NCBI GenBank assembly: GCA_963664825.1 | Contig: OY761614.1 | Location: 1,376,001-1,440,000, forward strand | DNA from: an uncultured Holophaga sp. | Lineage (GTDB): Bacteria; Acidobacteriota; Holophagae; Holophagales; Holophagaceae | Direction of reading: 5' to 3' | Length of the DNA: 64,000 bases | In this document: one piece after another, positions 31,528 through 33,066 of the stretch | Layout: every line of letters starts with the position of its first letter | Position numbering within the stretch: position 1 is the first letter of the stretch | Position numbers and translations under genes: made by a program | Notes under the pieces: generated by a model | Databases searched by the model: none | Seen by the model: the letters and a program-made list of their open reading frames with translations, nothing else | What the model was told of the DNA's origin: nothing

Positions 31528-32100
31528 CTATTTCTTAACAGCCTTCTTGGCCACAGGCTTCTTGGCGACGGCCTTCTTCACAACCTTCTTGGCCACAGGC
31601 TTCTTGGCAACGGCCTTCTTCACGACCTTCTTGGCCACGGGCTTCTTGGCGACAGCCTTCTTCACAACCTTCTTGGCCACAGGCTTCTTGGCAACGGCCT
31701 TCTTCACGACCTTCTTGGCCACGGGCTTCTTGGCGACAGCCTTCTTCACGACCTTCTTGGCCACGGGCTTCTTGGCGACGGCCTTCTTCATGACCTTCTT
31801 GGCCACGGGCTTCTTGGCGACGGCCTTTTTCACGACCTTCTTAGCCACAGGCTTCTTGGCGACGGCCTTCTTGGCCACAGGCTTCTTCGCGGCGACCTTC
31901 TTCACTACCTTCTTGGCGGCAGCTTTCTTCGCCACGGGCTTCTTCGCGACTGGCTTTTTGGCGACAACTTTCTTGGCCACAGGCTTCTTCACAGCTGGCT
32001 TCTTGGCAGCCGCCTTCTTAACAGCCGGCTTCTTCGCTGTGGCGTTCTTCACAGACTCGGCGGGCGTTTCGGGGACGACGGCGTTGGTCTCCTGTTCCAT
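31528..32100 (-). CDS. Nested in-frame histone-H1-like (Hc2/BpH1-like) basic protein, 190 aa
   Basis: AAGGAG SD 6 nt upstream of internal ATG 32100 (MEQETNAVV...); the remainder is mostly K/A/V/P pentapeptide repeats. Confidence 0.65.
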
Positions 32101-33066
32101 TGGGAACTCCTTTTTGCCCTTCCGGGCGGGGTGGGGTGAAGAGGTTGATGGAGAAAGTAGAACGGTGGGCTTGCTCGGTGATCGCTTCCCGATGCTGGGT
32201 GCGTCGGTCTTGCGTGCAGACTTGGAGGAGGCATCGGCTTCCATCGTCGCCGCGGCGGCCTCTTGGGTCTTGGCTTTGACCTTTGGGGATTTTTTGGTGG
32301 GTTCGATGCCCGCGAGAATCTGGGCGAGCCGTTTGCCTGGATAGAACTCGTCCAGGAAGACATCGCTGATGATCACGCCATGGACACCCATGGCCTCGAG
32401 CTGGCGGATCTGCTCCAGGTTGGAAACGCTGGCCTCGACCATTCGGAAACACTGCTGTTCCGGGACCAGCTTGAGAAGCGCCAGGGCCTTTTCGAAGGAA
32501 GGCTCCCAGGTATCCATGTTGCGGCCCACGACGCAGACGATCTCGGCCTCGGCTTCCAGGGCTCGCTGGAGATCGGCTTCACAGAACACCTCGACGACCA
32601 CATCGAGAGCCTTGGCGGCAGCCAAGCGCTGGAGGGCCCGGAGGCGCTCGGGCTCAAGCAGGGCCGCCACGAGATAGATGGCATCGGCGCCGAGGATCTT
32701 GCTCTCTTCGATCTGGTACTCCTCGAAGATGAAGTCCCGGCGCAGGAGCGGCACCTTTACCTGCCCGCGCACCTCGGGAAGGTGCTTGTCCTCGCCGGAA
32801 TAGAGGAAGCGATCCGTGGCCACCGAAACCGCACGAGCGCCATTCTCCACGAGGCTCTTCGCATGAGTGGCCGGCCGGTAACTCGCACGCACCTGCCCCC
32901 GCAGCGGATTGCCCCCCGCCACCTCGGCAATCACGGAAATGCCCGGCTGGCTAAGCTCTTCCTTGAGAGAGTGGTGCCCCCGGTACGCGTCCTTAACTGC
33001 GGCGGGACCCTTTTGCTTCTTGATCTCGATGTCCAGCGCCTTGAATATCTGGACTTTTTTCAGCAT
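31528..33066 (-). CDS. TrpC (indole-3-glycerol-phosphate synthase)-like barrel with altered catalytic residues, fused to a histone-H1-like Lys/Ala repeat tail
   Basis: [31 protein letters not shown]; no stop before the [10 protein letters not shown] repeats. Confidence 0.85.
31549..31842 (-). repeat. Tandem repeat, 7 x 42 nt ([14 protein letters not shown])
   Basis: Seven consecutive 14-aa units counted (one with V->M); degenerate 15-nt units continue to about 32040. Confidence 0.95.

Follow-up and report, generated by a model that had tools for sequence, protein, structure and literature searches.

The DNA analysed here, referred to throughout as the window, is a 64,000-nt stretch (positions 1,376,001-1,440,000 of contig OY761614.1, assembly GCA_963664825.1) from an uncultured Holophaga sp. 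whose genome was assembled as a single contig of 3.47 Mb at 96.55% completeness. The subject of the analysis is one gene in that window, in which a TrpC-like barrel, the fold of indole-3-glycerol phosphate synthase (IGPS), is joined through a linker to a basic tail resembling histone H1 and the chlamydial protein Hc2. The open reading frame (ORF) runs on the minus strand from an ATG at 33066 to a stop codon at 31530-31528 and comprises 512 codons without an internal stop. A first-pass annotation had described an uninterrupted 512-residue ORF with a TrpC barrel, a Ser/Pro/Lys linker and a Lys/Ala/Val/Pro tail, and both the ORF and the Pfam matches bear this description out; the position given there, 31528..33066, was right, and the minus strand had been missed, as had the spread through the family, the shift of constraint to the N-terminal helix and the internal start signal, all described below. 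The main parts of the gene, in window coordinates, are as follows:

33073..33079, minus strand: Shine-Dalgarno-like GAGGGAG, 6 nt ahead of the main ATG, as read from the sequence
31528..33066, minus strand: whole ORF of 512 amino acids, stop included, with TrpC-like barrel, linker and H1/Hc2-like tail
32938..33066, minus strand: residues 1-43, N-terminal helix alpha0 (residues 2-19 in the model) and the alpha0-beta1 linker, from conservation and the model
32302..32937, minus strand: residues 44-255, (beta/alpha)8 barrel with a remodelled active site (A50, R110, V180, G181 and A212 altered; E48, R182 and E211 retained), from Pfam, alignments and the model
32101..32301, minus strand: residues 256-322 (67 residues), Ser/Pro/Lys-rich linker, variable in sequence and length
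31528..32100, minus strand: predicted tail-only product of 190 residues, 38% Lys, net charge +69
31666..32058, minus strand: residues 337-467, Pfam HC2 match from a profile search
31542..31872, minus strand: tandem array of a 42-nt (14-residue) unit, 7.9 copies with 93% matches

Residues 22-238 match the Pfam IGPS family (PF00218) with an E-value of 4.1e-43 and 147.8 bits against a cut-off of 27. A ColabFold (AlphaFold2) model of residues 1-260 contains the N-terminal helix and all eight beta/alpha units at a mean predicted local distance difference test score (pLDDT) of 93.2 and a predicted template modelling score (pTM) of 0.91, and Foldseek placed the modelled barrel on solved IGPS structures with template modelling scores of 0.8-0.9; in a phmmer comparison the barrel matched PDB 6y88, a Pseudomonas IGPS, with an E-value of 1e-30. 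Residues 1-255 are folded in the model, and residues 256-512, the linker and tail, are of low complexity. A homodimer prediction for two copies of residues 1-260 scored 0.00 against a mark of 0.42, which gives no answer either way.

The active site was compared by column between 124 members of the fused family and 124 canonical TrpC representatives, with 6y88 and five canonical TrpCs of relatives as further references. Columns are numbered as in the present protein; in Sulfolobus IGPS the ExK and KDF/KGF lysines are K53 and K110, and we take the roles of K53, K110, E159 and N180 to be those generally assigned to that enzyme. The present protein reads E48-V49-A50 at the ExK motif, R110-D111-F112 at KDF and C178-V-V-G-R182 at GINNR, and its phosphate loops read E211-A-S at ESG and I-S234-D235 at IGS. 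The substitutions that the first-pass annotation had called by eye are all present in the alignments to 6y88, the relatives' TrpCs and the 124 canonical representatives. The two sets differ at these columns:

Column 50, lysine of ExK: K in 124/124 canonical; A in 104 and S in 19 of the fused family
Column 110, lysine of KDF/KGF: K in 124/124 canonical; R in 74, H in 28, Q in 19, L in 2 and N in 1 of the fused family
Column 180, Asn of GINNR: N in 123/124 canonical; V in 75, L in 48 and F in 1 of the fused family
Column 178, G of GINNR: mostly G in canonical; C in 124/124 of the fused family
Column 181, second N of GINNR: mostly N in canonical; G in 124/124 of the fused family
Column 212, serine of ESG: S in 123/124 canonical; A, G, C, T or V in the fused family
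Column 161, His after E159: H in 116/124 canonical; A, T, F or S in the fused family
Column 159, E159: invariant in canonical; replaced in 26/124 of the fused family

None of the 124 fused-family members has either catalytic lysine (columns 50 and 110) or N180. E48, R182 and E211 are invariant among them, and C178, C206, H31, H95 and H229 are conserved and form a candidate Cys/His metal site. The serines S213 and S234 of the present protein are peculiarities of its own genus; across the family, glycine stands at column 213 in 104/124 members and at column 234 in 121/124. None of the 14 NCBIfam TrpC models reaches its cut-off (the best scores 174.3 against 260 bits). Judged from these alignments, the barrel very probably no longer makes indole-3-glycerol phosphate and would therefore not be an IGPS.

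The barrel ORF is the sole IGPS-family match in its own genome, in which no Pfam match was found for TrpA, TrpF or the N-terminal domain of anthranilate synthase (trpE). When the seven trp-operon proteins of a congener were used as tblastn queries, only TrpB (57%) and the fused ORF (30%, as TrpC) were recovered. The one hit of the genome to a trpD model (35.9 against 199 bits; window 14456-15859) was rejected, being a pyrimidine-nucleoside phosphorylase, and the first-pass statement that the window holds no other trp gene stands. Outside the window, a solitary TrpB is encoded beside trmD (G000:C1:1749900-1751048; TIGR00263, 562.5 bits; 57% identity to the congener's TrpB). The organism is thus predicted to be without a tryptophan pathway, and perhaps obtains tryptophan only from external indole via TrpB: with no trpA anywhere in the genome and TrpB standing alone, indole salvage may be its sole tryptophan route. 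The fused gene is accordingly not the only trpC of a predicted tryptophan prototroph.

Among relatives of the same family, the orthologue was present in 24/24 genomes examined (60-97% identity over the barrel), and in 17/24 it was accompanied by a second IGPS match of 24-30% identity. The five second copies that were extracted all have the ExK and K-G-F lysines, and the one whose surroundings were scanned, that of a congener, lies within trpE-G-D-C-F-B-A adjoining a DAHP synthase gene. A canonical trpC is therefore absent from the present genome and frequent among its relatives. A tree was built from 88 sequences (21 fused, taken as every sixth; 62 canonical, taken as every second; and 5 canonical from the family), and in it the fused clade was monophyletic with a support of 1.0, a stem of 1.48 and a crown depth of 0.26. 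Its sister group had a support of 0.175 and the family's own canonical TrpCs were not its nearest neighbours, so that no donor can be named from this tree. On these comparisons the fused gene is a paralogue of TrpC that has been kept without the trp pathway. The first-pass claim of a dead enzyme, in the sense of a non-working IGPS, agrees with the loss of both lysines and N180 throughout the family, the retention of the gene without trpE, D, F and A, and the canonical trpC in the congener's operon.

An orthologue census was carried out over 150 genomes of the class, 126 from the family and 13 and 11 from two sister families, with a threshold of E <= 1e-40. The orthologue was found in 113/126 family genomes, representing 16/16 genera, and in 0/13 and 0/11 genomes of the sister families. 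Five sister-family genomes were also searched for an HC2-like (PF07382) match and had none, and a stand-alone H1-like ancestor was not found there. Against the whole protein library, the barrel returned eight clusters at >=62% identity, followed by a gap to canonical TrpCs at <=39%; six of the eight clusters are full-length (358-562 residues), and all six have a C-terminal extension. In a word-indexed search, nearly all of the best 120 of 634 matches carry both PF00218 and PF07382, and they come from independent assemblies. Among the matches listed, the named sources are Geothrix, Holophaga, Mesoterricola and Holophagaceae, and the names given by the sources are 'indole-3-glycerol phosphate synthase' (TrpC) or 'histone H1/5'. 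No description of a protein with this architecture was found in the literature covered (Creative Commons-licensed PubMed Central papers and bioRxiv).

Several individual orthologues deserve mention. The gene is kept in 4/4 genomes (G011, G069, G093, G140) of the reduced-genome genus g4 (0.9-1.2 Mb), where the orthologues have 59-61% identity, ORFs of 347-363 residues and a very short tail; in one of them (L045, G011:C1:1076000-1079000) the tail-only product would be 33 residues long. The orthologues of G002, split near residues 134-136, and of G142, with one TGA, both appear broken. The former genome, a congener's metagenome-assembled genome with 5% contamination, also holds a second, degraded barrel copy (G002:C10:9240-9963; 48-80% identity in pieces, one TGA), which could represent a pseudogene or come from a contaminant contig.

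The distribution of constraint along the barrel was then compared with that in canonical TrpC. The mean top-residue fraction over the 255 positions is 0.83 in the fused family. Columns formerly tied to catalysis and substrate (50, 53, 55, 110, 159, 161, 180 and 212) are 91-100% fixed in canonical TrpC and lie at the 2nd-39th conservation percentile in the fused family. Helix alpha0 (residues 1-20) and the alpha0-beta1 linker (residues 21-43) reach 0.92 in the fused family as against 0.41 and 0.37 in canonical TrpC, making this the most conserved part of the former and the least conserved part of the latter. The constraint has moved from the former active site to the N-terminal helix. Ratios of nonsynonymous to synonymous substitution rates (dN/dS) for the barrel against six relatives are 0.09-0.18 (dS was saturated for a seventh pair), compared with 0.05-0.13 for eno, 0.04-0.15 for parA, 0.09-0.31 for parB, 0.15-0.43 for dapF and 0.18-0.45 for folC in the same pairs; the barrel is under strong purifying selection, and its catalytic substitutions are family-wide. 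The shift is what one would predict had catalysis been lost and the function passed to a new surface centred on the N-terminal extension, which caps the mouth of the barrel. Because the shift in constraint favours a binding module over a new enzyme, we lean slightly towards an adaptor or sensor role for the barrel.

The tail matches Pfam HC2 (PF07382) at residues 337-467 with 71.1 bits against a cut-off of 40, and is the single HC2-like locus in the genome. The tail-only part consists of 38% K, 23% A, 23% V and 8% P, and from this composition it is likely to bind a polyanion such as DNA. The genome has four HU/IHF-family genes, so the fused protein would be an additional chromatin protein and not a substitute for HU. 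Among congeners (L007-L011; ORFs of 452-512 residues where complete) tail length varies and tracks the 42-nt array, and changes in repeat number look frequent, as reported for algP. In 20 orthologues the linker measures 36-73 residues and has little sequence conservation, and it is always in frame despite insertions and deletions, with some loci ending at a contig end. Barrel and tail are joined without an intervening stop at every one of these 20 loci from 16 genera, and every full-length match listed in the census has an open frame at least 54 residues longer than the barrel. As the frame is kept through the linker and no stop intervenes, the full-length protein would be made as well as any shorter form. 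Hence the fusion is conserved and is not a strain-specific read-through; a stop in relatives was seen in one genome, G114 (L042, G114:C9:142000-145300). There a frameshift in the linker leads the barrel frame to a stop within the internal Shine-Dalgarno signal described below, and the tail ORF opens at the conserved ATG, which could reflect either a natural split or a sequencing error.

Within the linker lies a putative second translation start, made up of the following elements:

32107..32112, minus strand: internal Shine-Dalgarno AAGGAG, invariant in 23/23 orthologues, synonymous sites included
32098..32100, minus strand: internal in-frame ATG (M323), 6 nt past the Shine-Dalgarno; ATG in 22/23 and GTG in 1/23 orthologues
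32116..32127, minus strand: hairpin candidate GCCC-GGAA-GGGC with a 4-bp stem, 3 nt upstream of the internal Shine-Dalgarno; stem in 23/23 orthologues

The in-frame arrangement GGC-nnn-AAG-GAG-n6-ATG/GTG occurs in the linker at 20/20 loci from the 16 genera and at three further loci, and persists at a locus of 45% GC from a 1.2-Mb genome. The GGC, AAG and GAG of the signal are each represented by a single codon in 20/20 sequences (3/3 columns). As a control, barrel columns with an invariant Gly, Glu or Lys were examined in the same 20 sequences, and a single codon was found in 1/30 of them (Gly 0/11, Glu 0/10, Lys 1/9). The two residues between Glu and Met vary freely (FP, SS, FQ, PQ, SP, LP, PS, NL, PK, PP, PR), so a peptide motif fits poorly, and constraint at the nucleotide level would be the simplest reading of the signal. 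Given this conservation, the internal start is probably used and would give a second, tail-only product, predicted at 33-235 residues in relatives, some of whose loci are cut by contig ends. As to the hairpin candidate, its loops across orthologues are GGAA, GCAA, GAAA, GTAA, ACAA, AAAA and CTCA; the stem is kept while the encoded residues change (R/H/Q/S), and in L018 the outer pair is swapped from G-C to C-G. Folding of the 60 nt that surround the internal start gives a z-score of -0.80, indistinguishable from shuffled sequences.

The genes flanking the fused ORF are listed below.

33235..33987, plus strand: upp (uracil phosphoribosyltransferase), divergent neighbour in 7/8 genomes
30195..31475, minus strand: eno, 52 nt downstream, adjacent in 8/8 genomes examined
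29882-30190, minus strand: ftsB/DivIC (PF04977, 37.7 bits)
26020..30190, minus strand: run of ftsB/DivIC, dapF, parA, parB and folC, a conserved downstream context

Profile matches confirm the same-strand downstream genes eno, ftsB, dapF, parA, parB and folC named in the first pass. The order of divergent upp, fused gene, eno, ftsB/DivIC, dapF, parA, parB and folC is shared by 7/8 genomes examined, and in the eighth, upp and eno alone were found in the fetched stretch; adjacency of eno and ftsB is common elsewhere. In two genomes (G016 and G015) genes encoding tetratricopeptide repeat (TPR)-glycosyltransferase proteins lie between dapF and parA. The window itself contains paralogous ORFs with an N-terminal TPR and a C-terminal glycosyltransferase-9-like piece (GT9, weak matches of 21-24 bits) at 34768-39009 on the minus strand and also at 38910-41882. 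Downstream of folC, at 22701-25655 on the minus strand, a 984-residue Ser/Thr protein kinase with C-terminal beta-propeller (PD40/WD40-like) repeats is conserved in the congener G007. A 247-residue ORF antisense to upp (33340-34083, minus strand) has no Pfam or NCBIfam match and is probably a shadow ORF of the GC-rich upp.

A promoter scan of 31200-33400 returned no sigma-70-like sites, and the same region has five terminator-like sites against 3.2 expected, none of them between the stop of the fused gene and eno. Logan contigs from metatranscriptome libraries of two studies, 90-99% identical to the present sequence, cover the barrel, the linker, the tail end and the eno junction; they reach high depth over the repeats, which carries no information. 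The junction is bridged by contigs of a close relative, a weak hint of co-transcription with eno. The cumulative GC-skew minimum at ~1.47 Mb and dnaA at 1.486 Mb mark the predicted origin, ~62-78 kb from the locus at 1.4075-1.4091 Mb, and the fused gene would be co-directional with replication. Both the fused gene and parAB are situated within ~80 kb of this predicted origin. In several complete relatives the orthologue lies within ~120 kb of the start or end of the record.

Taken as a whole, we consider it fairly likely that a TrpC paralogue that is not an IGPS serves as an adaptor on a nucleoid-anchoring tail and that a tail-only product is made in addition. In such an arrangement the barrel, above all its N-terminal helix, would be a non-catalytic module that binds a partner or small ligand, and the K/A/V/P tail, through non-specific and multivalent binding to DNA or polyphosphate, would hold this module on the nucleoid, or on some other polyanion, much as the H1-like tails of Hc2, AlgP and PhaF do. 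One origin-proximal gene could then yield both the full-length, barrel-bearing form and a free H1-like tail protein, with the ratio of plain H1-like compactor to barrel-bearing variant set by translation. A more far-reaching version, which we regard as speculative and rather doubtful, would be a two-component chromatin system in which a free linker-histone-like protein is paired with a full-length form whose barrel and invariant N-terminal helix bring a partner to the nucleoid or sense a phospho-aromatic metabolite there, and in which the isoform ratio couples compaction or segregation to physiology. If true, a bacterial H1-like protein would here, for the first time, carry a globular domain derived from an enzyme, and this pseudoenzyme would be essential even to relatives whose genomes measure ~1 Mb.

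Other explanations of the same gene were weighed against the adaptor reading. If it were still the organism's IGPS, a working TrpC with odd residues and an incidental tail, its being the only IGPS-family gene in the genome and its name in the databases would be accounted for; both lysines and N180 are, however, gone in 124/124 members, the genome lacks trpE, D, F and A, relatives have a separate canonical trpC in an operon and all equivalog models fall below cut-off, which makes this very improbable and already close to refuted. Equally improbable is a fusion artefact, that is, a barrel gene and an H1-like gene with its own ribosome-binding site joined through a mistake in assembly or annotation, or through the loss of a stop peculiar to one strain. 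The tail does have its own Shine-Dalgarno and ATG, G114 has two separate ORFs and tandem repeats invite assembly errors, but the uninterrupted frame at 20/20 loci from 16 genera, the open extension past the barrel in every full-length match listed, the presence of both domains in nearly all of the best 120 of 634 database proteins from independent assemblies, and a linker that stays in frame with scant sequence conservation all speak against it. A neofunctionalised enzyme, with a new activity on a phosphorylated or aromatic substrate or in DNA-associated chemistry and a tail that merely places it at the nucleoid, is unlikely in our view yet better founded. It would account for the strong purifying selection on the barrel and the mostly kept phosphate-loop glycines, and basic K/A/P tails do occur on true DNA-end-binding proteins such as mycobacterial Ku (PMC3553676). 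Conversely, the positions of IGPS chemistry now rank with the domain's most variable ones (A/S; R/H/Q/L; V/L; A/G/C/T; A/T/F/S), no new invariant acid or base has appeared at the former catalytic columns, the highest conservation is on the N-terminal helix and not in the pocket, and the host's own genus has Ser at both phosphate-loop glycines. Quite unlikely, too, is that the tail binds polyphosphate, a granule or another polyanion besides or instead of DNA, the protein acting as an AlgP/PhaF-like tether for spacing or segregation whose barrel faces the cargo: a structured N-terminal domain followed by a disordered basic tail is the architecture of AlgP and PhaF (PMC11894788) and is found here as well, and the gene is conserved near parA and parB, but the sequence points to no cargo, the barrel has no relationship to the N-domains of AlgP and PhaF, and a parAB neighbourhood is no evidence of shared function.

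Some observations weigh against the adaptor reading itself or against parts of it. Within the barrel, D235 and G234 hardly vary, C178 and G181 are newly invariant, and all of these lie at the barrel mouth together with E48, R182 and E211; the kept residues and the new invariants make a changed chemistry or a phospho-ligand site possible, and they also count in favour of a new enzyme. The conserved G-x-K-E-x-x-M island around the internal start could also be a peptide motif, and the 23 sequences that carry it are kin, so that counts of 20/20 overstate their independence. With respect to the tail, DNA binding is suggested by composition and a low-complexity Pfam match, and the more specific NCBIfam models for Hc2 (NF038052, 39 against 135 bits) and Burkholderia H1-like proteins (NF038053, 26.5 against 80 bits) score below cut-off. 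The RNA-library contigs derive from a relative (~90-97% identical), reveal neither starts nor strand nor level, and may stem in part from DNA. Finally, 13/126 family genomes have no match at the census threshold; these are 58-96% complete in 8-530 contigs, and G086 (95% complete, 8 contigs) is the most serious miss among them.

The adaptor reading and the findings under it have several consequences. Since public sources name the gene TrpC, metabolic reconstructions would credit trpC to genomes without trpE, D, F and A; the rule that the ExK and KDF/KGF lysines are absent and a K-rich tail is present separates the fused family cleanly from canonical TrpC across the identity gap described above. 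The family would provide a natural case of a TIM-barrel enzyme turned non-enzyme that has been under enzyme-like selection throughout the family's history while the site of constraint moved. For chromatin, it would offer a new architecture for bacterial H1-like proteins and a candidate for isoform control by an internal start. Retention in ~1-Mb genomes suggests a core function, and culturable relatives (Geothrix, Holophaga, Mesoterricola) are present by name in the match list.

Compared with known systems, the barrel has the fold of IGPS/TrpC (EC 4.1.1.48; 6y88, 3t44, 1igs), to which it is clearly homologous and with which it shares E48, R182 and E211. Unlike those enzymes, the fused family lacks the catalytic lysines and N180, stands outside the trp operon, is kept without the pathway, is constrained at the N-terminal helix and carries ~250 residues of linker and tail. 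The tail resembles the chlamydial H1-like proteins Hc2 and Hc1 (PF07382) in its short Lys/Ala/Pro/Val repeats, in an HC2 match above cut-off and in the variation of repeat number among close relatives; Bordetella BpH1 we take to be another bacterial H1-like repeat protein. Hc2, however, is a stand-alone tail protein, whereas here the tail sits on an enzyme-derived folded domain and a stand-alone form would arise only via the internal start. The low-complexity match to Hc2 is a compositional likeness that does not imply common descent.

In working principle, and not by homology, AlgP and PhaF are comparable. According to PMC11894788, AlgP, which has KPAA repeats, is found at polyphosphate granules and keeps these spaced out along the nucleoid, PhaF uses an H1-like C-terminal domain to tether polyhydroxyalkanoate (PHA) granules, and both combine a folded N-terminal module with a long basic KPAA-type tail that binds DNA and tethers cargo to the nucleoid. 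Their N-domains are a coiled coil or a phasin, in contrast to the TIM barrel here, their cargo (polyphosphate or PHA) is known, and the passages of that source on these proteins describe no internal start for either. The PAKKA-type tail of mycobacterial Ku (PMC3553676) is likewise a basic low-complexity C-terminal repeat on a folded protein, where it modulates DNA binding. The folded part of Ku itself binds DNA, whereas here it derives from a metabolic enzyme. Mycobacterial HupB presumably also carries a PAKKA-type tail.

For the second product, the closest parallels are phage endolysin isoforms and HrcQ, in which a Shine-Dalgarno and start codon inside an ORF yield the C-terminal part as a second protein; these isoforms are demonstrated experimentally (PMC12203907 and PMC8553256), whereas in the present family conservation points to one. 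The fused gene does have an in-frame start with a correctly spaced Shine-Dalgarno that is conserved beyond what the protein requires (23/23 orthologues). The parts are known, namely the TrpC fold, pseudoenzymes, bacterial H1-like tails, tethers made of an N-domain and a tail, and internal starts; what is probably new is their combination, an enzyme-derived globular domain on an H1-like protein throughout a family (113/126 genomes, 16/16 genera), together with a probable tail-only isoform.

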